From IMG/VR virus record IMGVR_UViG_2778261069_000007: a DNA stretch of 21,445 nt; one strand, 5' to 3'. This document shows positions 1-15,685 of the stretch, one piece after another (the first letter of the stretch is position 1; every line of letters begins with the position of its first letter). The notes beneath the pieces are model-generated. The model did not search any database, had not been told where the DNA came from, and was given only the letters and a program-made list of their open reading frames with translations. The position numbers were made by a program, and so were the translations under genes. The stretch is from a virus. Its lineage: Duplodnaviria > Heunggongvirae > Uroviricota > Caudoviricetes.

Positions 1-496
1 TCATAAGGCTGAAAGTCAGTCTTTCTTTGTATTTTTTATTTATTGCAGTTACTTCTTTTTGTTTTGGTTTATCACCAAGTTTTTTTATTTCTTCTTTATT
101 TTGATTTCTGATAAATTCATTACTTATTGTTTCTAAATGAGAAAAGAGAGTGTTCAGACTGCATGAACCGTGGTGATACATATAGAGACCAGAAAGATTA
201 GATTTTTTAATTAAGAAAAAGTTGAAATTAGCAAGTTTGTCACTTCCTTTAAGATCTTCAATTTTAAGCTGGAATTTACCATCAACAAATTGCGACTTAC
301 AGTTCTTTTTTTGGTTTCTGAATGTGACAACTAATCCATAATAGAAATCATTCACATCCGAAATGAGAATTTTACGAGTATAGTCTGTGCGACTGTGTTC
401 TCTGTTTGATGCGTTGATAAAAGCATTCATTACGTCAACGGTATTAATGTTTTTGTTATTGTTATTTATTGTAAATCCTATGCTTCTAACTTTCAT
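1..496 (-). CDS. Hypothetical protein, partial (3' end beyond window start); AT-rich accessory (moron) gene
   Basis: Minus-strand frame open from ATG (complement of 494-496) to position 2, then continues off the window; translation begins MKVRSIGFTINNNNKNINTVDVMNAF. First 60 nt are about 27% GC, against roughly 55% in the structural genes. A perfect TATAAT on the minus strand (complement of 575-580) lies about 80 nt upstream. No recognisable family. Confidence 0.45.
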   Translation of the reverse strand, partial: MKVRSIGFTINNNNKNINTVDVMNAFINASNREHSRTDYTRKILISDVNDFYYGLVVTFRNQKKNCKSQFVDGKFQLKIEDLKGSDKLANFNFFLIKKSNLSGLYMYHHGSCSLNTLFSHLETISNEFIRNQNKEEIKKLGDKPKQKEVTAINKKYKERLTFSLM

Positions 497-620
497 GTGT
501 ATTCCAGGACCGACTAAAGATAGCGAGAATGGGGACGCATAGTTTATAAAAATCCTAACGCGTACGCAAAAAGTATTATATCGTGTTAAGAGTGGTTACT
601 TCGCCACACAACTTAAATCC

Positions 621-638
621 GCCGCTGAGCGGTTTTTT
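621..638 (+). terminator. Putative intrinsic terminator (short GC hairpin CCGC-TGA-GCGG followed by T6)
   Basis: Hairpin 622-632 followed by TTTTTT 633-638. No + strand gene lies upstream, so it may end a short leader or small RNA. Confidence 0.35.
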
Positions 639-769
639 GTACCTGTAAACCTGGTGCAGTACAGTAAACACGCTGGTGGTCGTGAATACTGACTTTTTAT
701 CTTGCTGGCTTTTTAGACAAGAGTTATTGGTATGTCATGTTAACCAGAAGGGAAAAAGACATGCTAAAA

Positions 770-964
770 CAGCAAGATATGACAGAAACCGCCGCTGCAG
801 TCCTTCATTTCTTACCTGCTGACAAGTGGGTAACGCCACGCATGATGACGAGAACTACCGGAGTAAGCGAAGCCCGGTGCCAGTTAATACTGACTCAGTT
901 AGTTATGGCGGGTCTGGCGAAGGATAACGGCGGGTACGGGAATAAATTCAGACGCTGCCAGTAA
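770..964 (+). CDS. Small hypothetical protein, possibly a winged-helix DNA-binding regulator
   Basis: ORF 737..964; the internal ATG at 770 follows a purine-rich stretch (GAAGGGAAAAAGAC). The segment VTPRMMTRTTGVSEARCQLILTQLVMAGLAKDNGG looks like a wHTH recognition helix plus wing. Sits directly upstream of the methyltransferase. Confidence 0.4.
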   Translation, partial: QQDMTETAAAVLHFLPADKWVTPRMMTRTTGVSEARCQLILTQLVMAGLAKDNGGYGNKFRRCQ

Positions 965-1055
965 TGGCGGTTTCCTGCTGTGAAAATGGGCGGCTGGTGG
1001 GTGTTGGTAGCACCTGCCAGCCATTCGCTCATGCTTACTGGTCACAAGCGAACCT

Positions 1056-1092
1056 CGGCCCACTGCGGCCCACTGCTTTAGCGCAAAAGCAG
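1056..1092 (+). repeat. Perfect 10-bp tandem repeat (CGGCCCACTG x2, 1056-1075) abutting a 7-bp-stem hairpin (CTGCTTT-AGCGCA-AAAGCAG, 1073-1092)
   Basis: Read directly from the sequence, in the leader about 35 nt upstream of the methyltransferase start. No T-run follows, so it is not a classic terminator. Confidence 0.5.
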
Positions 1093-1124
1093 AGTGAGCC
1101 TACCAGAGTTACGCTTACTGATCC

Positions 1125-2177
1125 ATGAAAAATACTGTAAAAATAAACAGTGTTGATTTAATCAACGCTGATTGCCTGCATTTTATTCAGTCCCTGCCTG
1201 ATGATTCCATTGACCTGATTGTTACCGATCCGCCGTACTTCAAGGTGAAACCCAACGGCTGGGACAATCAGTGGAAAGGGGACGAAGATTACCTGAAGTG
1301 GCTGGACCACTGTCTGGCTCAGTTCTGGCGGGTGCTGAAACCTGCCGGAAGCCTTTACCTGTTCTGTGGACATCGCCTCGCATCTGATATCGAGATCATG
1401 ATGCGTGAACGTTTCAACGTTCTTAACCATATTATCTGGGCGAAGCCGTCCGGACGATGGAACGGGTGTAATAAAGAAAGTCTGCGCGCATATTTTCCCG
1501 CAACAGAACGCGTTCTGTTTGCTGAACATTACCAGGGGCCATATCGCGGCAAAAGTGACGGCTATGCGGCAAAAGAAAGTCAACTCAAACAGCACATAAT
1601 GGCACCGCTGATTTCGTATTTCAGGGATGCTCGTGCCGAACTGGGTATAACGGCAAAACAGATTGCCGAAGCCACTGGTAAGAAAAACATGGTTTCCCAC
1701 TGGTTTGGTGCCAGTCAGTGGCAGTTGCCGAATGAGGCTGACTACCGGAAGTTGCAGGCACTGTTTTCCCGTATAGCGGCAGAGAAGTTTCAGGAACAAC
1801 AACTGGAACAACCACACCACCAGCTGGTGGCATCTTATGATTCACTGAATCGCAAATATTCTGAATTGCTGGATGAGTTTAAAACTCTCCGGCGCTATTT
1901 CTCCGTATCAGTTTCCGTGCCTTATACCGACGTCTGGACGCATAAACCCGTTCAGTTCTACCCGGGTAAACATCCGTGTGAGAAGCCTGCGGATATGCTC
2001 CGGCAAATAATCAATGCCAGTAGTCGACCAGGCGATCTGGTTGCTGATTTCTTTATGGGATCCGGTTCCACAATAAAAGCAGCAATGGCGATGGGGCGTC
2101 GGGCGTTAGGTGTTGAGCTTGAGTCAGATCGGTTTAACCAGACGGTGAAAGAGGTAAGTGAACTGGTGGGGAAATAA
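1125..2177 (+). CDS. DNA methyltransferase, beta-class amino-methyltransferase (N6-adenine or N4-cytosine); apparently orphan
   Basis: 350 aa. Catalytic DPPY motif (IVTDPPYF) near the N-terminus and AdoMet-binding FxGxG motif (DFFMGSGST) near the C-terminus, the motif order of beta-class MTases. No obvious restriction partner. Confidence 0.9.
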   Translation: MKNTVKINSVDLINADCLHFIQSLPDDSIDLIVTDPPYFKVKPNGWDNQWKGDEDYLKWLDHCLAQFWRVLKPAGSLYLFCGHRLASDIEIMMRERFNVLNHIIWAKPSGRWNGCNKESLRAYFPATERVLFAEHYQGPYRGKSDGYAAKESQLKQHIMAPLISYFRDARAELGITAKQIAEATGKKNMVSHWFGASQWQLPNEADYRKLQALFSRIAAEKFQEQQLEQPHHQLVASYDSLNRKYSELLDEFKTLRRYFSVSVSVPYTDVWTHKPVQFYPGKHPCEKPADMLRQIINASSRPGDLVADFFMGSGSTIKAAMAMGRRALGVELESDRFNQTVKEVSELVGK

Positions 2178-2227
2178 TTCTGGTGTCAGAGCTTTTATTC
2201 GCTAATTTTTTCACTGGGAGGCTATTT

Positions 2228-2485
2228 ATGCATTCACACCATCATCAAATATCTATGATCCCACTTACCATGAGTTCACCCATTAAAGGTTTTTCACTGT
2301 ATGTAGAAAGCGAAGACATGGCTGTCGCTATAGCTGAGCTTGAAAATGCCTTATCACAGCTCAAGAACGGAGATAAGGCATTCAAAGAAAGTGGCACGCT
2401 GGTTGGTAACGTCAGAGCAAGTTATTGCTATCCTTACCGTCCTCATTGTGCCGCGAAAGGTCTTTATTGGGATGAAGGGGATTAA
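2228..2485 (+). CDS. Hypothetical small protein, about 85 aa
   Basis: ORF 2183..2485; ATG at 2228 is preceded by GGGAGG at 2215-2220. Its stop codon overlaps the stop of the convergent minus-strand gene (TTAA at 2482-2485). No recognisable family. Confidence 0.4.
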   Translation: MHSHHHQISMIPLTMSSPIKGFSLYVESEDMAVAIAELENALSQLKNGDKAFKESGTLVGNVRASYCYPYRPHCAAKGLYWDEGD

Positions 2486-2994
2486 GCAAGGACTTGTTCA
2501 CCGATAGTTACTGGTAACGGACAAATGTATTCCCAGACTGGATCAGGGTTAAAAGTTTTTCCTGACCAGTAAAGCTCCATTCTGTAGGTGAATTCCAATA
2601 CCGATGTATCATTTCTTAATAATGACATATCTCCGCGATGATAACTATCTGTTTGTATTATGAAAATTTTATCTGATGGTTTTCCGTCTGTAAGTCGAAA
2701 ATGTTTAGCCTCCTCCAGGTTACCCCAGGCGAAGAGTGACGTATAGCGAGAAGGTTTTTGCGGGCAAACTCCTCTTCGGTAAAACTCAAGTCCCCAGTCG
2801 ATGAGTTCGTTTTTATTATAAATTTTTGCCGCATTATTAATGAGGTATCCTTCGCCTTGTGGAGCAAGCCCGCGCGGAAAAAGTTTGTCTACCAGAGATG
2901 ACATTTCAACAGGAGTTATATCGGAGAATTGCTTTGGTGTAACGATATCGCCTGTTGAGTATATTCCTCGGCGATCAACCATAAATAGTTTCAT
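2482..2994 (-). CDS. Hypothetical protein, about 170 aa; accessory (moron) gene of unknown function
   Basis: ORF 2482..3006 on the minus strand. The second ATG (2994) has a GGAG RBS six nt upstream on the minus strand, so it is the likelier start. About 40% GC. Transcribed against the surrounding late genes, so it must have its own promoter in 2995-3211. No known motif recognised. Confidence 0.55.
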   Translation of the reverse strand: MKLFMVDRRGIYSTGDIVTPKQFSDITPVEMSSLVDKLFPRGLAPQGEGYLINNAAKIYNKNELIDWGLEFYRRGVCPQKPSRYTSLFAWGNLEEAKHFRLTDGKPSDKIFIIQTDSYHRGDMSLLRNDTSVLEFTYRMELYWSGKTFNPDPVWEYICPLPVTIGEQVLA

Positions 2995-3023
2995 TAATTT
3001 CTCCATTGATAGTTGTTACTTTT

Positions 3024-3060
3024 GGCGATGTAACGATATCAAACGAGAATTTATATCGCC
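3024..3060. promoter_or_regulatory. Imperfect palindrome GGCGAT...GATATC...ATATCGCC in the divergent intergenic region; candidate operator
   Basis: GGCGAT (3024-3029) is the reverse complement of ATCGCC (3055-3060). The 12-mer TGTAACGATATC occurs at 3029-3040 and again at 2938-2949, inside the 5' end of the minus-strand gene. Confidence 0.3.
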
Positions 3061-3235
3061 AGATGCTTAATCTGACACTTCATCTGACCCTAGTATGTGC
3101 CGGTTTTTTTTATTTAAGGCCGCTGACAGGTCCATTTAGTGCGACGCCTTTCCCCGTTTCCGCTCCTGGAATATTCGGGGATTTTTTATTCCCTCAATTT
3201 GCACCCGCGATATGTGCGAGGTGAGAGATGACGAA

Positions 3236-3571
3236 ATGCCTCATAACCCAAATACCTGGCCGGACTGGCTGGAGTTGTTCCAGAGCTGGTGGCGTGGAGA
3301 TACGCCGCTGGGCGCAGTGATTATGTCGATTGTTATGGCTGGTTTGCGTATTGCCTATTTTGGTGGTGGTGGCGGCTGGAAACGAAAAACACTCGAAATT
3401 TTGCTCTGTGGCGCTCTGACGCTGACATTTGCATCCGCGCTTGAGTATGTCGGATGGCCTAAATCGCTTTCTGTTGCCATTGGTGGTGGGGTGGGGCTGA
3501 TCGGGGTCGATGCAATTCGTGGGGCTGCAATGAGAGTAATCGGTAACAAGTTTGGTGGCTCTAAGGAGTAA
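3236..3571 (+). CDS. S: Holin, lambda S-like (class I, three predicted TM segments)
   Basis: Pattern and length resemble lambda S (hydrophobic segments, glycine-rich turn, charged C-terminus). Directly precedes the endolysin. ORF opens at 3212; start at the in-frame ATG 3236 was chosen, but 3212 is possible (dual start?). Confidence 0.8.
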   Translation: MPHNPNTWPDWLELFQSWWRGDTPLGAVIMSIVMAGLRIAYFGGGGGWKRKTLEILLCGALTLTFASALEYVGWPKSLSVAIGGGVGLIGVDAIRGAAMRVIGNKFGGSKE

Positions 3572-3574
3572 TTT

Positions 3575-4051
3575 ATGCAGGTACTAAATTCCCAGCGTAA
3601 AGCTTTCCTCGATATGGTGGCATGGTCAGAAGGAACGGATAATGGACGGCAACCGACATGTAACCACGGTTATGACGTTATTGTTGGAGGCGAACTATTC
3701 ACTGATTACTCCGATCATCCTCGCAAACTTGTCACACTAAACCCGAAACTTAAATCAACAGCAGCTGGTCGTTATCAGATTCTTTCACGCTGGTGGGATG
3801 CTTACTGTAAACAGCTTGGCCTGAAAGACTTCTCTCCAAAAAACCAGGACGCTGTGGCACTGCAACAGATTAAAGAGCGTGGCGCTTTGCCGATGATTGA
3901 TCGCGGCGATATTCGTCAGGCAATCGACCGTTGCAGCAATATATGGGCTTCATTACCCGGTGCAGGTTACGGTCAGTATGAACATAAAATCGGTGACCTG
4001 ATTGCCCGATTTAAAGAGGCTGGTGGGGTGGTAAATGAAGTTGAGCTATAA
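3575..4051 (+). CDS. R: Endolysin, lambda R-type lytic transglycosylase
   Basis: 158 aa; near-collinear with lambda R as recalled (QRKAFLDM-AWSEGTDNGRQ, NHGYDVIVGGELFTDYSDHPRKLVTLNPKLKST, GALPMIDRGDIRQAIDRCSNIWASLPGAGYGQ). AAGGAG RBS at 3561-3566. Confidence 0.95.
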   Translation: MQVLNSQRKAFLDMVAWSEGTDNGRQPTCNHGYDVIVGGELFTDYSDHPRKLVTLNPKLKSTAAGRYQILSRWWDAYCKQLGLKDFSPKNQDAVALQQIKERGALPMIDRGDIRQAIDRCSNIWASLPGAGYGQYEHKIGDLIARFKEAGGVVNEVEL

Positions 4052-4427
4052 GCTGGTTATCGCTGCATTCCTTTTAACTGTCGTCAGTTCTTTCATCTGG
4101 TCAGCCAACCACTACTACAGCAAATATCAGCACGAAAAGAGACGTGCTGATGAGGCTGTACAAAATGCCAAATCGGCAACTGCCATTACCAATAACGTCC
4201 TGCAATCACTGCAAATCGTCAATACAGTACTGGAGGCTAACCAGCATGCAAAACAGCAGATCGCACTGGAGTCACAGAGAACCCAGGAAGATATCAAAAT
4301 GGCTGTTGCGGATGATGATTGTGCTTCACGTCCTGTGCCTGCTGCCGCTGCTGACCGGTTGCGGAAGTACGCGGACAGTTTACGTGAGCGTTCCGGTGAC
4401 ACCACTGCCACCCAGCCTGACGTCTGA
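4035..4427 (+). CDS. Rz: i-spanin Rz
   Basis: 130 aa; N-terminal TM segment (LVIAAFLLTVVSSFIW), coiled-coil-like middle, charged C-terminus. Start overlaps the end of R, as in lambda. Confidence 0.85.
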   Translation: MKLSYKLVIAAFLLTVVSSFIWSANHYYSKYQHEKRRADEAVQNAKSATAITNNVLQSLQIVNTVLEANQHAKQQIALESQRTQEDIKMAVADDDCASRPVPAAAADRLRKYADSLRERSGDTTATQPDV

Positions 4428-4581
4428 AACTCCTGTACCGCTAATACCAAAACCGCTCACATATGGCGCAAGCCTCGACCTGAGTGTTGATTTGTTGTCA
4501 GCATTAGGGCAGTGCAATCAGGACAAAAAAGAAATCCGAATAATTGAGCAGCTGCGTAATAACGCCGATCAATATAAATAG
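4312..4581 (+). CDS. Rz1: o-spanin Rz1 (outer-membrane lipoprotein), overlapping rather than embedded
   Basis: Starts in the +1 frame inside Rz at ATGATG (4312). Signal peptide with lipobox LLTGC, then a proline-rich mature region (PVTPLPPSLTSETPVPLIPKP). Extends 154 nt past the Rz stop. Confidence 0.75.
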   Translation: MMIVLHVLCLLPLLTGCGSTRTVYVSVPVTPLPPSLTSETPVPLIPKPLTYGASLDLSVDLLSALGQCNQDKKEIRIIEQLRNNADQYK

Positions 4582-4651
4582 TATTAACAATACTGTATTG
4601 ATTTTATTTTTTCGTTAGACTTTTCCATGAGTTATGGATGAGGTTAACGAT

Positions 4652-4996
4652 ATGAATATAAAAAATTCAATTTTGTTAGTGATATCACTATTAGTGAGTG
4701 GTTGTGACAACGCACCTAAATTTGATGGTACCAGCCAGGAATCGCTCCGATATTCAGCAGAAAAAGTCTTTGAGTCATTATCTGAAGAGAAGAAGGCCGA
4801 ATTGAAAACGGCGATTGTCGATACTTTGGGGTACTACGATACTCAGGCAGAGTTAAGCAACGATAAAAGTTACTCTTCGAAGAAAATGAGTCTGGTAGTG
4901 TTCAATGGAAAAACGGCTGATCAGGTTATTTCCGAAGCTGCTACTTATCGGGAGAAAAAAGAAAAACTTATTCAACAATATCTGCACAAAAAGTGA
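4652..4996 (+). CDS. Hypothetical lipoprotein (moron) downstream of the lysis cassette
   Basis: ORF 4634..4996; ATG at 4652 is preceded by GAGGT. Signal peptide with lipobox LVSGC (MNIKNSILLVISLLVSGCDNAP). About 40% GC. Followed by a strong terminator. Occupies the position that bor holds in lambda but is not Bor-like in sequence. Confidence 0.6.
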   Translation: MNIKNSILLVISLLVSGCDNAPKFDGTSQESLRYSAEKVFESLSEEKKAELKTAIVDTLGYYDTQAELSNDKSYSSKKMSLVVFNGKTADQVISEAATYREKKEKLIQQYLHKK

Positions 4997-5001
4997 TAAA
5001 T

Positions 5002-5025
5002 GGCCGCAATGAGCGGCCTTTTACT
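5002..5025 (+). terminator. Rho-independent terminator (GGCCGC-AATGA-GCGGCC + TTTT)
   Basis: Perfect 6-bp GC stem 5002-5018 followed by a T-run, immediately after the lipoprotein stop. Confidence 0.6.
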
Positions 5026-5197
5026 TGTTATTTTTAGCGGGTCCTCCTGGCGATTTGAAACACCGGGGGGCTGTGGACACGCGGAAAACGGCTGGTTTTT
5101 TGCATTTTATCGGCATCATCATCTTTTATCTAACCTGTTGATATTTCAGTTGTGAAATTATTCACGATGTCGATTCGCTTAAATATTGTTCACCATC

Positions 5198-5704
5198 ATG
5201 GATAACGAACTGAAAAATCTTCGCCTCAATATTAACCAGCTGGCGGCGCTGACTAATCTGCATCGTCAGACCGTCGCAAGTAGACTGAGCAATGTTGAGC
5301 CTGCCCCCGGAAGTAACTCCCGCCTCAAGCTGTATTCAGTTCTGGATATTCTCAGGGAATTACTGGGCAGGACTACGACGCCGGAGCTGGTTGCTGTTGA
5401 CAAAATGACACCGCCGGATCGAAAGGCGTGGTTTCAGTCTGAGCGGGAGCGCCTCAAGTTTCAGCAGGAGACCGGAGAGCTTATCCCGGCCTCAGAAGTC
5501 AGCCGGGAGTTTGCCTCAATGGCAAAAGCTGTCGTTCAGGTACTGGAAACGCTACCGGATATTCTCGAGCGTGACTGTGCAATGACACCGTCAGCCGTCG
5601 TCAGGGTGCAAAAAGTCATAGATGACCTGCGGGATCAGATTGCCATGAAGGTTGAGCTGGCAGAGTCGCCGGAACAGGAGGACAGTTTGTCACAAGAGGA
5701 GTAA
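5198..5704 (+). CDS. Terminase small subunit (Nu1-like, N-terminal HTH)
   Basis: ORF opens at TTG 5186; first ATG is 5198 (MDNELKNLRLNINQLAALTNLHRQTVASRL, HTH-like). Immediately upstream of the large terminase. Confidence 0.8.
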   Translation: MDNELKNLRLNINQLAALTNLHRQTVASRLSNVEPAPGSNSRLKLYSVLDILRELLGRTTTPELVAVDKMTPPDRKAWFQSERERLKFQQETGELIPASEVSREFASMAKAVVQVLETLPDILERDCAMTPSAVVRVQKVIDDLRDQIAMKVELAESPEQEDSLSQEE

Positions 5705-5707
5705 GCC

Positions 5708-7825
5708 ATGCGACAGGCCACGGCGGCGGAAGTCAGAAAGAATACCGCCGGGATCATAAAGGCACCGCGTCGGATGCCTGTTGCCGAGGCCGTTCATAAG
5801 TACATGCGGGTTCCCGTGGGCGTCGGAAACTCCGTCGAATGGGATCCGCAACTCGCCCCCTATGTCGTGGAGCCGATGAACTGCCTGGCATCACGTGAGT
5901 ATGATGCTGTTATTTTTGTTGGTCCGGCCCGAACAGGTAAAACAATTGGGCTGATTGACGGCTGGGTGGTGTACAACGTGGTGTGTGACCCGTCGGATAT
6001 GCTTATCGTCCAGATGACGGAAGAAAAAGCGCGTGAACACTCCAAAAAACGTCTGGCCAGAACATTTCGCGTCAGCCCGGAAGTGGCATGCAGGCTGAGT
6101 CCGTCGCGTAACGATAACAACGTTCATGACCGCACGTTTCTTGCCGGAAACTACCTCAAGATTGGCTGGCCCTCCGTCAACATCATGTCATCCTCGGATT
6201 TTAAATGCGTTGCACTGACGGATTACGACCGTTTTCCGGAGGATATCGACGGGGAAGGCGATGGTTTTTCGCTGGCCTCAAAACGAACCACCACATTTAT
6301 GTCGGCGGGCATGACCCTGGTGGAGAGCTCGCCAGGGCGGGAAATCACCAATACCAAATGGCGACGAAAATCACCCCATGAAGCGCCACCCACTACCGGT
6401 ATTCTGGCTTTATATAATCGCGGTGATCGCCGTCGATGGTACTGGCCCTGTCCGCACTGTGGTGGGTACTTTCAGCCTGCTATGGAGGCGATGACCGGTT
6501 ACCGGGATATTGCCGATCCGGTAAAAGCCAGTGAAGCGGCACATATCGTCTGCCCGCACTGTAACGGGGTGATCACAGCTGATAAAAAGCGGGAGCTTAA
6601 CGGACGTGGCGTCTGGCTCAGGGAAGGTCAGAGCATTGATAAAGCCGGGAATATATCGGGTGATGCCCGTCGTTCCCGCATCGCGTCCTTCTGGATGGAA
6701 GGTCCCGCCGCGGCTTACCAGACCTGGGCACAGCTGGTTTACAAATTACTGACGGCAGAGCAGGACTATGAAACCACAGGCAGTGAAGAAACACTGAAAA
6801 CGGTGATCAACACTGACTGGGGCTTACCTTATCTGCCACGCGCGGCGACCGAACAGCGCAGGGCTGATGTACTGATGCAGCGGGCGGAGGACTACGGTAA
6901 ACGTCTGGTACCACCGAAGGTGCGTTTTCTGCTGGCATCGGTGGATGTACAGGGCGGGAAGAAACGTCGTTTTGTGGTGCAGATTATCGGTTACGGTGAG
7001 AACGGCGAACGCTGGCTGGTGGATCGCTATAACATTCGTCAGTCCCTGCGCTGTGATGAAAACGGCGAGGCACTGACGATTCATCCGGGCTCTTACCCTG
7101 AGGACTGGCAGTTGCTGATCACGGATGTGCTGGAGAAAACATACCCTCTCCAGTCAAATCCTTCCCGCCGTATGCCCGTGCTGGCTATGGCTGTGGACAG
7201 TGGGGGTGAGGATGGTGTGACGGATAATGCGTATAAGTTCTGGCGCACATGCCGCCGTGATGGTCTGGGAAAACGGGTATACCTGATAAAAGGTGACAGT
7301 ACCCGTCGCCAGAAAGTGATCACCCGAACACACCCTGATAATACCGGACGAAGCGATCGCCGGGCTGATGCCCGCGGCGAAGTACCGGTATATCTGTTGC
7401 AGACCGATCTGCTCAAAGATCAACTCAGCAATAATCTGGAGCGTGAAACCCCGGGGGCCGGGTATATCCATTTTCCCGACTGGCTCGGTGAGTGGTTTTA
7501 TGAGGAGCTGACTTATGAGGAGCGGGGCAGCGACGGAAAATGGCGCAAGCCAGGTAAAGGGAACAACGAAGCATTCGACCTGTTCTGCTATGCCCATGCC
7601 GTCGCTATTCTGCGTGGTTACGAAAAAATCCGAGACTGGGAGCAGCCGCCTGCCTGGGCGGCATCTCAGGACACAAATCCGGACATTATTGACGGGGAAC
7701 GCCCCGGGGAGAGGGGAGTGAAAAAAGCGATATCCGCTCGTTCATCTCCGGTTGCCGTCACCGAACAGGCCAGCCCACTGTCTGGCGGCTGGCTGGGGGT
7801 CAGTGGTAACGGAGGCTGGCTATGA
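5708..7825 (+). CDS. Terminase large subunit (GpA-type ATPase/nuclease)
   Basis: 705 aa; Walker A motif VGPARTGKT; CxxC...CxxC pairs (CPHCGG, CPHCNG) as in lambda-A-type terminases. GAGGAG RBS upstream. Confidence 0.95.
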   Translation: MRQATAAEVRKNTAGIIKAPRRMPVAEAVHKYMRVPVGVGNSVEWDPQLAPYVVEPMNCLASREYDAVIFVGPARTGKTIGLIDGWVVYNVVCDPSDMLIVQMTEEKAREHSKKRLARTFRVSPEVACRLSPSRNDNNVHDRTFLAGNYLKIGWPSVNIMSSSDFKCVALTDYDRFPEDIDGEGDGFSLASKRTTTFMSAGMTLVESSPGREITNTKWRRKSPHEAPPTTGILALYNRGDRRRWYWPCPHCGGYFQPAMEAMTGYRDIADPVKASEAAHIVCPHCNGVITADKKRELNGRGVWLREGQSIDKAGNISGDARRSRIASFWMEGPAAAYQTWAQLVYKLLTAEQDYETTGSEETLKTVINTDWGLPYLPRAATEQRRADVLMQRAEDYGKRLVPPKVRFLLASVDVQGGKKRRFVVQIIGYGENGERWLVDRYNIRQSLRCDENGEALTIHPGSYPEDWQLLITDVLEKTYPLQSNPSRRMPVLAMAVDSGGEDGVTDNAYKFWRTCRRDGLGKRVYLIKGDSTRRQKVITRTHPDNTGRSDRRADARGEVPVYLLQTDLLKDQLSNNLERETPGAGYIHFPDWLGEWFYEELTYEERGSDGKWRKPGKGNNEAFDLFCYAHAVAILRGYEKIRDWEQPPAWAASQDTNPDIIDGERPGERGVKKAISARSSPVAVTEQASPLSGGWLGVSGNGGWL

Positions 7826-8037
7826 CGAAATCTGAAATCCAGCAGATGCTGGTCACGGTACGCCAGGCGTATCGTGATTCTCTGGACGGGAAAAGCGTGT
7901 CTTTTACTGGCGTGAATGGGCGCGCCATTACCAACCATGATCCCGTCGCACTTCGTAAAGAGCTTGAATACTGGGAAAAACGCTGGCAGGCCGTCAACGG
8001 TCGCGGCACCAACTTCAAACTCGCTAACTTTCTGTAA
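7822..8037 (+). CDS. Head-tail joining protein, lambda W-like
   Basis: 71 aa; start overlaps the terminase stop (ATGA); GGAGG RBS. Size and position match lambda gpW; weak pattern similarity only. Confidence 0.65.
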   Translation: MTKSEIQQMLVTVRQAYRDSLDGKSVSFTGVNGRAITNHDPVALRKELEYWEKRWQAVNGRGTNFKLANFL

Positions 8038-8045
8038 GGTCATTC

Positions 8046-9557: not shown

Positions 9558-11592
9558 TCCCCGCGCCAGCCTTGCAGGTGTCGATGCCGCAAACGGTCAG
9601 TGCTGGTACGAAATCCGTGCACAGGCAACCGGACGGGTGGAAATTTTCCTCTATGACGTGATTGGTGGATGGGGCATCACCGCGCAGCAGTTTATCACTG
9701 ACTGTAAAGATGCGGGGGTGTTTGAGGCCAGCGCCATTGATCTGCATATCCACAGCCCGGGCGGTGATGTGATGCAGGGCTTTGCCATCTTTAACACGCT
9801 GTCACGCCTGAAAGCGAAGGTGGATATCTGGGTGGATGGTGTCGCTGCCAGTATGGCATCGATGATCGTCTGCCTTCCCGGAGCCACAGTACATATGCCT
9901 GAAAACGCCTGGATTATGGTGCATAAGCCCTGGGGCGGGATCGCCGGTGATTCCGATGATATGCGTGATTATGCCGACTGGCTGGATCGCAACGAGGCGC
10001 TGATGCTGTCTGCCTACATGAATAAAACCGGACTGGGGCAGGAGGAGCTGGAGGCCATGCTGAAAGCGGAAACCTGGCTCAGCGGCGCTGAAGCTGTGGA
10101 AAAGGGCTTTGCAGACTCCCTCGAACCCGAATTACAGGCTGCGGCCTGTGTGAACCAAAATAAACTGAAGGATTATCAGAATATGCCAGAACAGGTTAAT
10201 GCTCTTTTTGCTCCGCGTGCGGAAACTCAGGTTACCCCACCGCAGGCCAGCCAGCCTCCGGCACCACAGGTATCTCAGGACACGCAGCAGCCAGGCGCCG
10301 TAGATATTGCCGCGCTGGCCACTCAGCTTCAGCAGCAGATGCAGGCTGCCAATGCGGAACGTGTGAACGCTGTCTCTGCCGTGTTCGACGCATTTCCGGC
10401 ATTTGCCTCGCTGAAAGCGGAATGCCTGAGCGATTTCACCTGCTCGGCTGAAAAAGCCCGTGAACGACTGCTGCAGGCGCTGGCGGCGGGTACCACGCCC
10501 TGTGCCGGGCCGGGAGCAGCACACATTTACGCAGGCAACGGCAATCTGGTGGGTGATTCCATCCGTGCAGCAGTGATGGCTCGCGCAGGGTACAGCGAAG
10601 CCGAAAAAGACAATGCCTATAACGGCTTTACGCTACGCGAACTGGCGCGTGCCTCACTGGTGGATCGCGGCATCGGAATTTCCGGACATGCCGCACCGAT
10701 GGCAATGGTGGGGCTGGCATTCACCCACAGTGGCAGTGACTTTGGCAATATCCTGATGGATGTTGCTCACAAAGCGGCACTGCAGGGCTGGGACAGCGCC
10801 AGTGAAACGTTTGACCAGTGGACCCGCAAGGGCACCCTCTCAGATTTTAAAACTGCCCACCGTGTGGGGCTGGAGGCTTTCCCGACCCTGCGACAGGTTC
10901 AGCCGGGCGCTGAATATAAGTATGTAACCCTTAAAGATCGCGGTGAGCCCATTGCGCTGGCTACGTATGGCGAACTCTTCAGCATTGATCGCCAGACCAT
11001 CATTAACGATGACCTGGATATGCTGACCCGTATTCCGATGGCAATGGGAGCAGCAGCGCGTACCACGGTGGGCGATCTTGTCTGGGCCGTACTGACCAGC
11101 AACCCGAAAATGTCTGATGGTAAACCGTTGTTCCATGCCGATCACGGCAACCTGGTGACTGCGGATCTGTCCATTGAAGGACTGGATGCGGGGCGTAAAG
11201 CCATGTTGCTGCAAAAGTCCGGTAGCCGCCGCCTGAATATTCGTCCGGCCTTTATGCTGACACCTGTTGCCATTGAATCTCGGGCAAGTCAGTTAATTAA
11301 ATCTGCCAGTGTACCGGGGGCAGATGCCAACAGCGGCATTGTTAACCCGATCCAGAACTTTGCCACCGTTCTGTCAGAAGCCCGTCTGGATGACAGCAGC
11401 CCGACCGATTATTACCTGGTGGCGGCACAGGGGCGTGACACAATTGAAGTGGCCTATCTTGACGGTATCGATACTCCGTATCTGGAACAGCAGCACGGCT
11501 TTACCGTTGACGGGGCCGCATTCAAAGTGCGCATTGATGCCGGGGTCGCACCGCTTGACTGGCGGGGCATGGTTAAAGTCAAAAAACAGTAA
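9514..11592 (+). CDS. Fused head maturation protease (ClpP/S14-like) and major capsid protein precursor
   Basis: ORF 9319..11592; start at ATG 9514 (AAGGAG at 9501-9506) overlaps the portal 3' end. N-terminal ClpP-like region (IHSPGGDVMQG, GVAASMASMI, MVHKPW), Q/P-rich linker, C-terminal capsid-like domain of about 350 aa. Terminator follows. Confidence 0.85.
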   Translation: MQQMISPPCRGMTINPRASLAGVDAANGQCWYEIRAQATGRVEIFLYDVIGGWGITAQQFITDCKDAGVFEASAIDLHIHSPGGDVMQGFAIFNTLSRLKAKVDIWVDGVAASMASMIVCLPGATVHMPENAWIMVHKPWGGIAGDSDDMRDYADWLDRNEALMLSAYMNKTGLGQEELEAMLKAETWLSGAEAVEKGFADSLEPELQAAACVNQNKLKDYQNMPEQVNALFAPRAETQVTPPQASQPPAPQVSQDTQQPGAVDIAALATQLQQQMQAANAERVNAVSAVFDAFPAFASLKAECLSDFTCSAEKARERLLQALAAGTTPCAGPGAAHIYAGNGNLVGDSIRAAVMARAGYSEAEKDNAYNGFTLRELARASLVDRGIGISGHAAPMAMVGLAFTHSGSDFGNILMDVAHKAALQGWDSASETFDQWTRKGTLSDFKTAHRVGLEAFPTLRQVQPGAEYKYVTLKDRGEPIALATYGELFSIDRQTIINDDLDMLTRIPMAMGAAARTTVGDLVWAVLTSNPKMSDGKPLFHADHGNLVTADLSIEGLDAGRKAMLLQKSGSRRLNIRPAFMLTPVAIESRASQLIKSASVPGADANSGIVNPIQNFATVLSEARLDDSSPTDYYLVAAQGRDTIEVAYLDGIDTPYLEQQHGFTVDGAAFKVRIDAGVAPLDWRGMVKVKKQ

Positions 11593-11595
11593 TAC

Positions 11596-11620
11596 ACCGC
11601 CGCGTCAGGCGGTTTTTTTT
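11596..11620 (+). terminator. Intrinsic terminator/attenuator after the capsid gene (CCGCC-GCGTCA-GGCGG + T8)
   Basis: Hairpin 11597-11612 followed by TTTTTTTT. Confidence 0.6.
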
Positions 11621-11662
11621 ACTCAGGCGGCACCGTCGGGAGCCGCTTATACGGAGGTAAAA

Positions 11663-11992
11663 ATGTCAAAAAATTACGTTCAGGACGGTACAACCGTTGA
11701 ATGGGTGAACGATAGCGGTAAAACCGTTTTATCCGGTGAACTGGTCGTTAAAGAAAATCTGATCGGGGTGGCGCATGCGGATATTCCGCAGGATGGAACA
11801 GGTGTTTTGCATACCACGGGGATTTTTGCATTACCCAAAGAAGCAGAGGAACTGACACAGGGAAAACGGGTATATCTCAGGTCTGATACTGCCACGCTGA
11901 CAGCAACAGAATCGGGCAATGCGCTGGTGGGAACCGTATGGGCAGCGGCAGAAACCAGCGATGCTACCGTGTGTGTGCGTCTCGGTTACTGA
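11663..11992 (+). CDS. Putative head decoration / capsid cement protein
   Basis: 109 aa; ATG 11663 preceded by GGAGGT; small beta-rich protein directly after the capsid gene. Assignment by position and size. Confidence 0.55.
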   Translation: MSKNYVQDGTTVEWVNDSGKTVLSGELVVKENLIGVAHADIPQDGTGVLHTTGIFALPKEAEELTQGKRVYLRSDTATLTATESGNALVGTVWAAAETSDATVCVRLGY

Positions 11993-12348
11993 TGGGCAAT
12001 TTCCATGAACGGCTGATGCGGGCAGAGGCCCGCATAACGCGACTTTTTGCGCAACCATACCCCGCAGTGTTGTACATCGGTAATGAATGTCGTCAGGTGA
12101 ATGTGATTTTTGAAACGCCGGATGCTCCGGTCAGTGTTCCGGGCGGCGGAGAAATCAGCAATCACGCCCCGGCATTCAGTGCGATGACGGCGGATATTGT
12201 CGGACTGTCCAGGCATGATGAGGTGCTGGTGAACAATATTCGCTACCGGGTAACGCATGTCGGTGCGAACGAAGCCGGGCGCACCCGTGTCACGCTGGCG
12301 TATGGCGCACCGGGAAACGTTCAGCCACCGATTGAACAATGGAGCTGA
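11992..12348 (+). CDS. Putative head completion / head-tail adaptor protein
   Basis: ATG at 11992 overlaps the upstream stop (TGATG), suggesting translational coupling; 118 aa; position between head and tail genes. Confidence 0.55.
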   Translation: MGNFHERLMRAEARITRLFAQPYPAVLYIGNECRQVNVIFETPDAPVSVPGGGEISNHAPAFSAMTADIVGLSRHDEVLVNNIRYRVTHVGANEAGRTRVTLAYGAPGNVQPPIEQWS

Positions 12349-12349
12349 T

Positions 12350-13006
12350 ATGGCGCGAGGATCCAGACTGCGACGGGATTTACCGGTCGATATTGATGTG
12401 GATGCTATCTGGCAGATTGCGGACAGTATCGGTGCCACACAAAAACAGTTTCGGGCAGCCTACTCCCGGGCGCTCAGACGAACTGCTGCCACCCTGCGCA
12501 AAAAAGCGCTGGCTGATCTGAAAGACGGGCTGGCGCCGCGCAGTATCGGGCTGGTACGCCGCCGTCTGCTCTCTTTTCGCCTCGACAGAGGCTCCCGGCT
12601 GGATAATTTCAGGCTCTGGTTTGGTCTCAACGCCATTAAGGTTAAAGACCTGAAAGGGCGAATTAACGGGCGGCTACGCCCACGCCATACCCTGCGGGAT
12701 AAATCCACGGGGCGTTTTATCAAAGCTCGTCGGCAGGTAAAAAATGCCGGGTTTACGCCTAAAGGCAGTCTGCTTTCGACACTGACCTTCGAAAATGGCG
12801 AAGTCGCCCGCTCAAAACGAGAGAACCGACGAACGGTGGTTATTCGTGATCCGCAAACCCGGCGTACCCGGGAAGCGGAGGTGGATATTTACGAACCGAT
12901 GCTCAATTACATTGAAGATAACGCCTTTGCCGAAGCAATGGACATTTTCATGCACCATTTTGAAACAGATATCCGTGGGCGGGTGAAAGCCAGGATATCT
13001 GTATGA
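12350..13006 (+). CDS. Hypothetical virion morphogenesis protein, strongly arginine-rich
   Basis: ORF 12257..13006; ATG 12350 lies 1 nt after the upstream stop with GGAG upstream; 218 aa. Confidence 0.55.
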   Translation: MARGSRLRRDLPVDIDVDAIWQIADSIGATQKQFRAAYSRALRRTAATLRKKALADLKDGLAPRSIGLVRRRLLSFRLDRGSRLDNFRLWFGLNAIKVKDLKGRINGRLRPRHTLRDKSTGRFIKARRQVKNAGFTPKGSLLSTLTFENGEVARSKRENRRTVVIRDPQTRRTREAEVDIYEPMLNYIEDNAFAEAMDIFMHHFETDIRGRVKARISV

Positions 13007-13016
13007 GGTCATCACA

Positions 13017-13568
13017 ATGGCTGAACCTTTATCTCTGGCCCGATACCACGATGCGGTTATCAGTGCGCTAAAGCAGATAACGTGGGTAAGTGATGCCGGA
13101 GCTTATCCTGAAAAAAATATTCCCCGTTTCACCGGGCTGGTGACACCTGCCGTGTATTTCACGATTAACAGCTGGGAGCAGAGCGGCGGCAATGAGGGGC
13201 AACTCAATGTTGAACTCTCGTGCGATCTTTATGTGGTGGTTGATGCCGCGTCTGGTCTCAGTTGTCCGGAAATCTTCCTGCGAACAGCGGCAGCAGATAT
13301 TACGCAGTGGATTGACGGGCAACAGTTTGGTCTGACTCACATTTCACCCGCCGTATTCACTGCTGCAGAGCGTGACGAATTTGATCCTCGCATGGATGAC
13401 TACCTGGTGTGGCGTGTGTCGTTTACCCAGGAGGCGGCTTTTGGCGTGGATCCGTTCGCCCGCACCGCTATGCCACTGAGTCAGGTCTGGCTGGGAGTAG
13501 CACCGGATACAGGGCGGCAGCATGTGGACGACTATTACCTTATCCTGGAGGCGGGAGCTGATGAGTGA
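13017..13568 (+). CDS. Putative neck / tail completion protein
   Basis: 183 aa ORF in the neck region; no diagnostic motif recognised. Confidence 0.55.
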   Translation: MAEPLSLARYHDAVISALKQITWVSDAGAYPEKNIPRFTGLVTPAVYFTINSWEQSGGNEGQLNVELSCDLYVVVDAASGLSCPEIFLRTAAADITQWIDGQQFGLTHISPAVFTAAERDEFDPRMDDYLVWRVSFTQEAAFGVDPFARTAMPLSQVWLGVAPDTGRQHVDDYYLILEAGADE

Positions 13569-14178
13569 CATTACAGGGGATTTGCAACGCAGACTGGCAA
13601 ATCTGGTACGACGCGGTGTGATTCATTCTGTCCGGCATGATGGTATCCCCAAATGCCGGGTTGATCTGGGCGATATCATCACGACCTGGCTGCCGCTGTG
13701 TCAGGGTTTTTCTGGCGCAAACCGGGCTGATTCGAATCCTTATGCCGTCGGTGATGCGGTGACAGTGTTGTCGGAGGCCGGAGAGTTAAACAACGGGCGG
13801 GTGTTTCCTGGCTGGAACACCGGGAAATTACCCGTGCCGGAGGGCAGCGACAGCGAACATATTACCCGTTACAGCGACGGCACAGAGATCCGGTATGACC
13901 GGGCAGCTCATGCCCTGACGATCACCCTGACCGAAGGAGGCACTTACAAAATCACCGGTAAGGGTACGCTTGATGGTCCGGTTGAAATCACCGATACCCT
14001 GACTGTACAGGGGAAAACGCAGATTAACGCCGATACGACGGTGAAGGGTAATATTGGTGCCTCTGCAGAAATTACCGACAAAACCGGCAGTATGAGCGGG
14101 ATCCGCAACATCTTTAACGAGCACAACCACCCCGGCGACAGTGGCGGGAGTACGGATAAACCTAATCAGAAAATGTGA
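13561..14178 (+). CDS. gpV-like baseplate central spike protein
   Basis: ORF 13522..14178, start at ATG 13561. N-terminus (LVRRGVIHSV...CRVDLGD...TWLP) and C-terminal HxH...GDSGG apex motif (NEHNHPGDSGGST) resemble P2 gpV as recalled. Confidence 0.65.
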   Translation: MSDITGDLQRRLANLVRRGVIHSVRHDGIPKCRVDLGDIITTWLPLCQGFSGANRADSNPYAVGDAVTVLSEAGELNNGRVFPGWNTGKLPVPEGSDSEHITRYSDGTEIRYDRAAHALTITLTEGGTYKITGKGTLDGPVEITDTLTVQGKTQINADTTVKGNIGASAEITDKTGSMSGIRNIFNEHNHPGDSGGSTDKPNQKM

Positions 14179-14199
14179 CCTGCTGCGGCAGGTTTTTTT
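14179..14199 (+). terminator. Hairpin plus T-run between the spike and sheath genes (CCTGC-TGCG-GCAGG + T7)
   Basis: Read directly from the sequence; probably an attenuator within the late operon. Confidence 0.5.
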
Positions 14200-14215
14200 A
14201 TGGCTGGAGAAAGAC

Positions 14216-15685
14216 ATGTCTCAGTTACATGGTGTTGAAACAATTGAACTGACCTCGGGAACTGTGGCGGTGACCACTATCCAGACGGCTATTATCGGTC
14301 TGGTGGGCACGGCACCGGAGTCGTCTGCCGGGAGTGCGGCAGCGGTCACCACCGGGACGCCGATTCTGGATAACGTTCTGAACTTCACAGCAAAGGAGAG
14401 GGGCCGGGCTGGCAATGTTATCCAGGTGGACGCGGTGGCGGCGGTACCAGATACGGAAAGCCCGCAGGCTGTTAACACATCGGCATCCTGGGATGACGTT
14501 ACGCATAAACTGACGGTGACACTGGGCTGTGATGAGCAGGGGGTGATCACGGCGCGACCTGCTGATGTGGTCAGTGTGGTCAATGCGCTGGATGGCGTCA
14601 AAGTTCAGGCCGAAGGCAGTGGCGAGGGGCTGTTGGCAACGTTCAGTGTAAAGCTGGAAGGGGGCGAAGATGAGCCTTTTCCGTTAAATACGCCTGTGGC
14701 TGTGGCGGGCACCGCGCTCATTAATCGTCTGGGAGACAAGGGGACTCTCAAACAGGCGCTGACAGAGATTAATGATCAGCGTAATGCGCTGACAGTGGTG
14801 GTGCGGGTGGCTGATGAAACTGACGGGGCAAAAAAACGGGCAGCCATACTGAAAGGGATTGGGCTTCTGTCATCAGCAAAATCCATTACCACGTATCAGC
14901 CACGTATTGTGATTGCGCCGGGATTCAGTGAGGACGATGCGGTCGGGAAAGCCCTGGAAACGGTGGCCGGAAAATTACGTGCGGTGGCCTATGTTGACTG
15001 TGCTTCCGGAGCAACGTTGCAGGAGGTGGTACAGCGCCGTCAGTCCTATGGTGCCCGTACTGAACTGTTGCGACCGCGTGTTCAGGCTGCCGATGCGGAT
15101 GGCCAGTTAGTGTATCGCCCTTACTCTGCTTTTGCCGCCGGATTACGTGCCCGTATCGACTACGAAAAGGGCTGGTGGTGGAGCAAATCGAACCAGGACA
15201 TCAACAATATCCTCGGAGTGGAGCAGATCGACGAATTTATTCTCGGGGATGAAAACTGCGATGCGAACCTGCTCAACATGCAGAACGTATCCACCATTAT
15301 CCGTCGTGCGGGCTTTAAACACTGGGGAAACCGTCTGTGCGCAACCGATCCGCAGTGGCGTTTTGAATCCGTACGACGTACAGCAGATGTTATCGAGGAC
15401 AGCATTCAGGAAACCATGCTGGAGTATGTTGACCGTCCGCTGGATCGCGAAAATGCCGATGACATTATCGGCACCATTAATGCCTATATGCGACAACTGG
15501 TCGGACTGGGCGCCATCTTCGGCGGTCGGGCCTGGCTGGATGAAGAACTTAATACCGCAGAGAGCATGGCGGCAGGTGTCCTGTATATCAACTATGACTT
15601 TGGACCGAAATCGCCGACTGAACTTATCAGTCTGCGCGTCCGGGTGAATAATAACTATGCGCTTGAGGAGATGCTGGCAGCATGA
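14216..15685 (+). CDS. Contractile tail sheath protein
   Basis: ORF 14141..15685, start ATG 14216 (GGAGAAAGAC upstream); about 490 aa; followed by an overlapping tube gene, the canonical sheath-tube pair. Confidence 0.9.
   Translation: MSQLHGVETIELTSGTVAVTTIQTAIIGLVGTAPESSAGSAAAVTTGTPILDNVLNFTAKERGRAGNVIQVDAVAAVPDTESPQAVNTSASWDDVTHKLTVTLGCDEQGVITARPADVVSVVNALDGVKVQAEGSGEGLLATFSVKLEGGEDEPFPLNTPVAVAGTALINRLGDKGTLKQALTEINDQRNALTVVVRVADETDGAKKRAAILKGIGLLSSAKSITTYQPRIVIAPGFSEDDAVGKALETVAGKLRAVAYVDCASGATLQEVVQRRQSYGARTELLRPRVQAADADGQLVYRPYSAFAAGLRARIDYEKGWWWSKSNQDINNILGVEQIDEFILGDENCDANLLNMQNVSTIIRRAGFKHWGNRLCATDPQWRFESVRRTADVIEDSIQETMLEYVDRPLDRENADDIIGTINAYMRQLVGLGAIFGGRAWLDEELNTAESMAAGVLYINYDFGPKSPTELISLRVRVNNNYALEEMLAA

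Follow-up and report, generated by a model that had tools for sequence, protein, structure and literature searches.

Oriented Chi sites beside the predicted cos site of a lambda-like Escherichia coli prophage with a contractile tail

Why does the late region of a tailed phage carry one octamer again and again, and nearly always on the same strand? The question is raised by a stretch of 21,445 nucleotides (IMG/VR virus record IMGVR_UViG_2778261069_000007, Caudoviricetes), which we call the window, and the octamer is Chi, 5′-GCTGGTGG-3′. This stretch comes from a temperate lambda-like prophage of E. coli, of the SfV/LLS type, and comprises its late region; the phage packages its DNA from cos. 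The answer which we favour, and which we hold to be rather probable, is that the Chi cluster beside cos reflects the use of the host enzyme RecBCD by a lambda-like phage without recombination or anti-RecBCD genes of its own.

An exact scan of the whole window yields nine Chi on the + strand (672, 993, 1823, 3285, 3789, 4019, 7015, 11923 and 15171) and one on the − strand at 1817–1824. A first-pass annotation, made by eye, had listed eight + sites and the single − site and had conceded that occurrences might have been missed. All of its sites are correct and the counts on the two strands are indeed unequal; the site at 3789 had been overlooked, and thus six + sites instead of five lie within the first 4.1 kb. 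Chi is the top octamer of the window, tied with CGCTGACA at nine copies each, a ranking which refers to the window and not to the whole genome. All genic Chi lie inside + strand genes. The coding sites are read three times as x-CTG-GTG-G (Leu-Val), three times as xGC-TGG-TGG (Trp-Trp, once Trp-Trp-Trp) and once as GCT-GGT-GGG, and the two + sites at 672 and 993 are outside long open reading frames. The sites and the predicted cohesive end are as follows.

672–679, + strand: Chi, non-coding, 32 nt 3′ of a terminator-like hairpin (621–640) which itself follows the late-promoter region.
993–1000, + strand: Chi, 5′ arm of hairpin P2 in the leader RNA of the methyltransferase gene; homologous to Chi 39318 of phage LLS.
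1817–1830: palindrome CCACCAGCTGGTGG in the methyltransferase gene, a − strand Chi (1817–1824) overlapping a + strand Chi (1823–1830).
1823–1830, + strand: Chi, + half of the palindrome, in the methyltransferase gene; homologous to Chi 40138 of LLS.
3285–3292, + strand: Chi in the holin gene, codons AGC TGG TGG (Ser-Trp-Trp); present in SfV and mEp460_4F5.
3789–3796, + strand: Chi in the endolysin gene (3575–4051), codons CGC TGG TGG (Arg-Trp-Trp).
4019–4026, + strand: Chi in the endolysin gene, codons GCT GGT GGG (Ala-Gly-Gly); the + site nearest to cos, at about 1.05 kb.
5068–5079, + strand: predicted 12-nt cohesive end (cosN), GGGCTGTGGACA, by homology with LLS.
7015–7022, + strand: Chi in the large terminase gene (5708–7825), codons TGG CTG GTG G.
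11923–11930, + strand: Chi in the head decoration (cement) gene (11663–11992), codons GCG CTG GTG G.
15171–15178, + strand: Chi in the tail sheath gene (14216–15685), codons GGC TGG TGG TGG (Gly-Trp-Trp-Trp); retained in Citrobacter phage Chris1.

The annotated cohesive site of phage LLS, GGGCGGCGCGCT, lines up with nucleotides 5068–5079 of the window; the conserved block CGCGG-AAACGGCT-GTTTTT follows directly, and the record of Hafnia phage yong2 begins exactly at the equivalent of position 5080. We infer that cos is located at 5068–5079; positions 1–5067 would then be the right end of the packaged genome and the left end would start at 5080. The block CGCGGAAAACGGCTGGTTTTTTGC at 5080–5110 is common to LLS, yong2 and Chris1. 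The Chris1 record is circular with host genes at its ends, and so does not begin at cos. To the left of the predicted cos, at distances of 1.05 to 4.4 kb, lie six of the nine + sites, on the side with the lower G+C content (44.4% against 54.5% to the right).

Measured against the E. coli K-12 average of one Chi per 4.6 kb (PMC12315714), the whole window has a density of one per 2.1 kb, which is 2.1 times as high (Poisson P = 0.02), and its first 5.08 kb a density of one per 0.73 kb, which is 6.3 times as high (P = 1.5e-4). Neither value is near that of the chromosome. Only the structural genes, with one Chi per 5.5 kb, match the chromosomal average, and no other part of the window does. The comparison with host density which the first-pass annotation had proposed thus sets the window apart as a whole and at its right end, but not in the structural genes.

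One explanation of these numbers would be that Chi is a by-product of coding-strand composition, in which CTG-GTG, TGG-TGG and GCT-GGT are common, without any selection for Chi itself. In 100 shuffles of the window which preserve dinucleotides, the two strands together had 1.08 ± 1.01 sites; the highest count was 4, and no shuffle reached 10. We also used a stricter null, in which every protein is kept and synonymous codons are shuffled within each gene. Under this null 2.80 ± 1.45 + sites and 0.21 − sites are expected in genes, where seven and one are observed (P = 0.011 for the + strand). With codon order scrambled 1.41 sites are expected (P = 0.0003). The + strand excess over the codon-aware null is about 2.5-fold and is localised: under synonymous shuffling the genes left of the predicted cos have four Chi against 0.92 expected (P = 0.005), with the two non-coding sites in addition, whereas the genes right of cos have three against 1.83 expected (P = 0.26). 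The first impression that eight copies are far more than chance was therefore justified in that the excess is real, but it is smaller than a naive estimate for an 8-mer and is confined to the approximately 5 kb beside cos.

The strand bias has to be judged differently. Since all genes which carry Chi are on the + strand, most of the bias follows from this arrangement, and the codon-aware null predicts a ratio of about 13:1 where 9:1 is observed. The bias noted in the first pass is as strong as it was said to be, yet it is not independent evidence, because the codon-aware null already produces it. Compared with the chromosome, where the leading-strand bias is 75%, the observed ratio shows no difference either (binomial P = 0.24). 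The core hexamer CTGGTG is itself abundant on the + strand, with 29 copies against three on the − strand, the GC skew is positive over the entire window, and the KOPS motif GGGNAGGG, which occurs once, says nothing on chromosome-like polarity.

In favour of composition, single sites are gained and lost by synonymous changes between relatives. Chi 3789 is absent from mEp460_4F5, which has GTTGGTGG with a synonymous CGT codon, and at the position of Chi 4019 the same phage has the synonymous GCAGGCGG. Chi 7015 is retained in Chris1 but missing from LLS, mEp460 and the Jnd12 prophage; in these three the identity of the terminase gene is about 70%. For Chi 11923 we found no homologous Chi among the relatives examined. 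Chi 672 is present in SfV, mEp460, the Jnd12 prophage, Stx2c_2409 and phiP27, and Stx2a_WGPS2 has GCTGGCGG instead. To judge from these alignments, individual Chi sites come and go among relatives. A further case is ACTGGTGG at 2162–2169, at the 3′ end of the methyltransferase gene, which is Chi with one mismatch. A true Chi stands at the homologous position in mEp460 and in the Jnd12 prophage, and the 500-bp bin containing this position has a Chi in 79 of 80 related viral contigs; the lineage of the window has thus lost, or never gained, another Chi of the right end.

What composition leaves unexplained is the excess at the right end, which arises where G+C is lowest, and the two non-coding sites. 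Furthermore, lambda with no Chi and LLS with 23 Chi have nearly identical codon and amino-acid usage (PMC12315714). Top-strand Chi are also kept where nucleotide identity has fallen to 75–80%: the window sites 993 and 1823 align with their LLS counterparts in DNA which is only 75% identical, and Chris1 retains Chi 7015 and 15171 in segments of about 79–80% identity (about 79% around Chi 7015). The − half of the palindrome is not kept in this way. Composition thus accounts for the strand bias and for the sites in the structural genes, with their Leu-Val, Trp-Trp and Ala-Gly-Gly frames and a count at expectation. As an explanation of the whole pattern it appears unlikely to us.

The clustering of oriented Chi beside the predicted cos agrees with what has been published for a class of lambda-like phages. 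The lambda-like phage LLS, isolated by Zheng, Casjens, Davidson, Amundsen and Smith (Genome Res 2025; PMC12315714), is without a recombination module and without a RecBCD inhibitor and grows better with RecBCD present. LLS has 23 Chi, of which 20 are on the top strand, in the orientation active for RecBCD entering the right cos end. Among 314 enterobacterial lambda-like phages the authors count 68 without a recombination module; 62 of these 68 have at least eight Chi on the top strand and at most six on the other, and the Chi of such phages cluster at the right end although G+C is lower there (PMC12315714). Already in 2013 an excess of Chi in lambda-like phages and prophages without RecBCD inhibitors was reported by Bobay, Touchon and Rocha (PLoS Genet 9:e1003825; PMC3784561). 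The window, with nine + and one − Chi in 21.4 kb, falls within the published limits; it shows the lambda-like organisation with a cos-type, gpA-like terminase, and its Chi are displaced towards the right end despite the lower G+C. As in lambda and LLS, the late genes are coded on its + strand.

Our recount of LLS agrees with Zheng et al.: 20 + and three − Chi, with ten of the + sites beyond 33.4 kb, that is in the last 22% of the genome. SfV has 17 + and five − Chi (seven + in the last 5 kb), mEp460 16 and four, phiP27 12 and five, and Chris1 16 and three in the 32 kb examined. The first 12.2 kb of the window recur at 99.5% identity in two longer contigs, L003 and L004. If the early-right region of L003 is added to the window, the counts rise to 13 + and three − Chi; of the + sites, ten then fall in the last 14 kb of the packaged DNA and three in its first 16.4 kb. 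In 80 viral contigs with the same methyltransferase, which are not independent of each other, the density of + Chi is 1.03 per kb on the upstream side of the gene and 0.53 per kb on its downstream side, and that of − Chi 0.30 and 0.02 per kb, respectively.

LLS and the window phage share more than Chi. In both, the late genes are organised as in lambda, the cos terminase is of the gpA type, protease and capsid are fused in the head, and a methyltransferase gene of 1053 nt lies between Q and the lysis genes; both also have many top-strand but few opposite Chi, clustered in a low-G+C right end beside cos. They differ in the tail, which is contractile and P2/Mu-like in the window phage (as in SfV and phiP27) and lambda-like and flexible in LLS, and in the lysis genes, where the window has a lambda-type holin with a different endolysin and LLS a phage-21-like pinholin cassette; of the window phage, 21 kb are available. 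The elements of Bobay et al. (PMC3784561), lambda-like elements of E. coli and Salmonella without Gam or Abc2, likewise have more Chi than composition predicts; their analysis covered whole genomes, mostly of prophages, whereas here the excess is cos-proximal and was found with a null which keeps the proteins. In lambda red gam chi+ mutants, too, Chi aids the growth of a phage without Red or Gam function, but there a single Chi has arisen by mutation in a naturally Chi-free phage (PMC12315714), and here multiple sites are natural. Phage P1 is also temperate, has about one Chi per 2 kb (50 in 94.8 kb) with Chi as its most frequent octamer, and requires RecA and RecBCD to cyclise (PMC12315714); it is unrelated, with headful packaging, terminal redundancy and a plasmid prophage. 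The Chi of the E. coli chromosome, finally, 1008 in K-12 and mostly on the leading strand, are the same octamer for the same enzyme and co-oriented with genes and replication, but in the window local density is up to six times higher and the sites are organised around the packaging end instead of oriC and ter.

Does the window phage also lack a recombination module, as the class would predict? The window stops before the early-left operon, and its relatives have to answer. LLS has homologues of yfdR, yfdQ and yfdP in this operon (PMC12315714), and in L003 yfdP stands beside the repressor gene. This early region is present at 95–96% identity in four complete E. coli genomes; all four carry a yfdP-yfdQ-yfdR early-left operon, and none has an annotated Red, Erf, RecT, Gam or Abc2. 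SfV, mEp460, LLS and Stx2a_WGPS2 are likewise of the yfdP-yfdQ-yfdR type and have none of these genes annotated. We had considered Stx2a_WGPS2 as a module-bearing contrast for the shared methyltransferase cassette and dropped it when its operon proved to be of this type. These calls rest on annotation, and the mosaicism of phages could hide a module in the window phage; with this reservation the phage probably has no recombination module of its own.

We suggest that Chi would act in the following steps, which follow the established biology described in PMC12315714. Terminase would cut cos and stay on the left end, leaving the right end open. RecBCD would enter the exposed right end and travel leftwards along linear or concatemeric DNA. 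As the enzyme recognises 5′-GCTGGTGG-3′ only when approaching from the 3′ side, it would meet six correctly oriented Chi within 4.4 kb, and recognition of one of them should be nearly certain. Chi recognition would shift RecBCD from degradation to the loading of RecA, by which the genome would be protected and recombination would yield packageable concatemers. Phages without Red and Gam functions would benefit from such a run of Chi, and selection would keep and accumulate Chi near the right end. Phages with Gam tend to be without Chi, and wild-type lambda, as the first-pass annotation had remarked, has none (PMC12315714). The annotation had further proposed that oriented Chi act on RecBCD entering from one end of linear phage DNA, and this is the published explanation for the class. 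The window sites may thus affect the growth of the phage.

Several observations weigh against this interpretation. The + strand is at once the coding strand, the cos-active strand and, in three related prophages, the leading strand, and because of this triple coincidence orientation cannot separate the explanations; in particular, the chromosomal co-orientation which the first pass had named next to linear phage DNA is inseparable from it by orientation alone. About 16 kb of structural genes show no Chi excess, and the codon-aware excess is only moderate, with P about 0.01 overall. Three of the seven coding sites are Trp-Trp, where TGGTGG is obligatory, and Chi 993 is at least partly constrained by an RNA hairpin. 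The maximal-order Markov expectation from Chi's own 7-mers is 8.2 against nine observed, so that Chi is not above its own 7-mers; we judge this null to be uninformative, as the 7-mer counts consist mostly of the Chi copies themselves. Stx2a_WGPS2, with the same type of early-left operon, has only nine + and five − Chi in 50 kb. That a module is absent from this exact phage, finally, is concluded from relatives.

A second explanation would place the selection on the resident prophage. Chi co-oriented with replication would then aid the RecBCD-dependent repair of collapsed forks, as on the chromosome, and the integrated element would drift, or be selected, towards a Chi content and orientation like those of its host. 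In the three related prophages whose flanks were readable the late-gene strand is indeed the leading strand; Jnd12 is located by yjjG, PS1Thumoskin9 by yecE-yecN-cmoA-cmoB and A2 by ypjA, and the orientations of these genes relative to oriC are presumably those of the MG1655 map. The positive GC skew along the window and the near-chromosomal Chi density of the structural genes fit as well, and Zheng et al. note that cryptic prophages should gain Chi as the chromosome does (PMC12315714). The 5 kb beside cos, however, exceed the chromosomal average by far, and from fork repair one would not expect the sites to cluster at a packaging end. At the Jnd12 locus there is one Chi in 14.4 kb of flanking chromosome against 19 (15 + and four −) in about 35 kb of prophage, and the same pattern is found in virions of the lytically propagated LLS, SfV and mEp460. 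Moreover, the prophage looks intact and recent, given that a contig of an independent assembly, GCA_001514825.1, matches the first 12.2 kb of the window at 100% identity. Host-type selection is in our view quite improbable as the source of the pattern.

Least probable is that the Chi sites are unrelated local constraints without a common function (the RNA hairpin at 993, the peptide HHQLV at the palindrome, Trp-Trp in holin, endolysin and sheath): the hairpin covaries, the 20-mer around Chi 993 is invariant even in a Morganella phage, and the Trp-Trp and HHQLV peptides are conserved among relatives, but the synonymous null already includes protein constraint and still leaves the excess left of cos, other clades form the hairpin without Chi so that the RNA does not need the Chi sequence, and neither the cos-proximal clustering nor the published link to missing recombination modules would be explained.

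The palindromic double Chi lies within the methyltransferase gene. It encodes His-His-Gln-Leu-Val (HHQLV; codons CAC CAC CAG CTG GTG G) and is present in 79 of 80 close relatives, which are 95.5–99.2% identical. The more distant phages separate the two halves: LLS has only the + half (CAT CAC CAG CTG GTG GCC), phiP27 and Stx2a_WGPS2 have only the − half, and Stx2c_2409 has neither. These differences are synonymous or near-synonymous changes within one HHQLV peptide. Under the codon-aware null the single − strand Chi is unremarkable (P about 0.19). We considered the palindrome as a functional two-way Chi and rejected it, since the halves vary independently among relatives and a lone − site is unremarkable. 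The back-to-back double Chi pointed out in the first pass is present, but it is not a conserved unit; to judge from the relatives, it is an accident of codon choice in a conserved peptide, with no sign of a selected two-way signal.

Chi 993 lies in a structure of another kind.

982–1127, + strand: structured leader RNA with helices P1 to P5, upstream of the methyltransferase start codon; score of 130 bits with covariance model R1.

The 20-mer ATGGGCGGCTGGTGGGTGTT around this Chi is invariant in the window, SfV, LLS, Stx2c_2409, phiP27, Stx2a_WGPS2 and a Morganella phage, although the methyltransferase genes of these phages are only 64–96% identical in nucleotides to that of the window (64–82% in the five most distant, 64% in the Morganella phage). 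Chi 993 forms the 5′ arm of a hairpin of 13–14 bp, GGCUGGUGGGUGUU / AGCACCUGCCAGCC. The 3′ arm of this helix P2 varies among G-U, G-C and A-U pairs, and pairing is preserved only in the + strand RNA. In about 100 viral contigs the distance from the element to the start codon of the methyltransferase is 128–130 nt. When the search was anchored on the 3′ side, Chi 993 was retained in 61 of 69 distinct contexts; the other eight have GCTGGCGG, GCTGGAGG, GACTGGTGG or GCTAGTGG. A small open reading frame from the ATG at 986 (MGGWWVL...) was considered as the cause of this conservation and rejected, as indels in relatives shift the frame while the nucleotide blocks stay.

The same leader architecture is found with methyltransferase homologues down to 51% protein identity: (A/G)UGGGC, P2, a proximal GCYCAU, P3, a distal GGCCCA, P4 with a GCGCA loop, P5 and the AUG. 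It occurs in lambda-like, N15-like, Morganella-phage and further clades of these homologues. In the clade comprising the lambda-like phages and the Morganella phage P2 bears Chi, with a nearly invariant 5′ arm and a 3′ arm drifting by wobble-compatible changes; in other clades the sequence of P2 is wholly different and contains no Chi. The UGGGC has two conserved partners, a proximal one (GCUCAU or GCCCAU) and a distal one, which suggests that the leader may switch between two folds.

RNAalifold on a MAFFT alignment of the divergent leaders gave P1 only, with the hairpins out of register, and we replaced it by folding of each sequence and alignment to a covariance model. This model was built from the lambda-like clade and gave 47 copies in 59 sources, with one weak reverse-strand match excluded. 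In the resulting alignment, which is fitted to the model and has to be read accordingly, 84.7% of the cells pair against 71.7% in shuffles and about 41% with the partners slid, 28 of 37 pairs change on both sides, 197 cells are double changes against 64 in shuffles, and none of 500 shuffles reaches the observed covariation values. Each of the helices P2 to P5 shows covariation; P1 (UGGGC with GCCCA) does not vary. Given this hairpin with covarying pairs across relatives, the deep conservation of Chi 993 is at least in part an RNA constraint.

No Rfam family matches the leader at the gathering thresholds; at E values up to 10 the only overlap (982–1032) is a non-significant match to C4 antisense RNA (E = 7), and ARAGORN found no transfer RNA. 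Nor did we find a description of the leader in the papers searched (for the hairpin sequence and for the prophage small RNAs AgvB, AsxR and Pas). The leader is the more novel part of this work. We tentatively put forward that it could be an undescribed RNA of a widespread phage N6/N4 DNA methyltransferase, with a possible two-fold switch, in which one 8-mer would have two roles, in an RNA helix and as a signal to RecBCD close to the exposed end of the genome, and that it could stand for a new class of RNAs controlling the expression of phage methylases.

Two variations of the leader region are added here. At about 1046–1067 a 10-nt tandem duplication, GGCCCACTGC twice, which copies the distal partner of P1, is found in the window, in the identical contig L006 and in a few others; it is absent from the other aligned relatives, including L003. 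An AT-rich subclade of the methyltransferase (viral contigs L277–L313) has no P1–P5 leader. It has instead, about 35–70 nt upstream of the methyltransferase start, a terminator-like hairpin AAAGCUGGUGGCUUAACNGUCAUCGGCUUUUUU with GCTGGTGG in its 5′ arm, and sister contigs have the same hairpin without Chi. This Chi may be coincidence or convergence.

The remaining features of the window are listed below.

1–506, − strand: accessory gene of low G+C, 5′ part of a gene of 308 amino acids.
Near 560–640: putative late-promoter and terminator region, with a small open reading frame downstream.
1125–2177, + strand: N6/N4 DNA methyltransferase gene.
2482–3006, − strand: DUF2441 gene, accessory, low G+C.
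3575–4051 and 4035–4427, + strand: endolysin and Rz which, with the holin, form the lysis genes; a DUF6694 gene follows.
5198–5704, + strand: small terminase (DUF1441).
5708–7825, + strand: large terminase of the lambda gpA type, with GpA_ATPase and GpA_nuclease domains.
Right of the terminase, + strand: portal, fused ClpP-protease/capsid protein and P2/Mu-like contractile tail.

The window is the entire draft contig PTRS01000069.1 (21,445 bp; assembly GCA_002965725.1), without chromosomal flank, and a 100%-identical contig, BBVR01000026.1, extends 1.3 kb upstream of it. Contig DAFSVP010000026.1 (71.8 kb; assembly GCA_021723215.1) has 99.5% identity over the first 12.2 kb. Overall, antiterminator Q is followed by the methyltransferase, the lysis genes, terminase, portal, the fused ClpP/capsid protein and the contractile tail. 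The left 4.4 kb are 93–97% identical to mEp460_4F5, SfV, cdtI and other phages, and over the head and tail genes the identity with Citrobacter phage Chris1 is about 80%. The window is a mosaic: its late-regulation and lysis genes are of the SfV/mEp460 type, the terminase is of the lambda gpA type and comes with a fused ClpP/capsid head resembling that of Gifsy, and the contractile tail is P2/Mu-like. The whole combination of genes was found in no complete E. coli genome of the collection, where the best single place covers 51% of the window.

The two reverse-oriented accessory genes interrupt the late operon and may be defence or other accessory cargo; in L004 a KAP-family NTPase stands in place of the gene at 1–506. 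Between 560 and 660 the putative late-promoter and terminator region consists of a conserved block, GTGTTAAGAGTGGTTACTTCGCCACACA, followed by an intrinsic terminator, GCCGCTGAGCGGTTTTTT, at 621–640. The region is common to phiP27 and Stx2a_WGPS2, and its terminator and downstream part are also found in Stx2c_2409.

In summary, the Chi pattern of the window is already published for this class of phages, and the finding is correct but ordinary. In the main it adds a further mosaic phage, one with a contractile tail, to those which obey the published rule: lambda-like phages without recombination and anti-RecBCD genes of their own load the packaging-proximal right end with oriented Chi and use RecBCD instead of blocking it. 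Two cautions come with it, namely that a codon-aware null strips strand bias of its value as evidence and that unrelated constraints such as the RNA hairpin at 993 can hold individual Chi sites. The number of Chi and their position relative to cos could quickly predict the recombination strategy of such a phage and its dependence on the RecBCD of its host.

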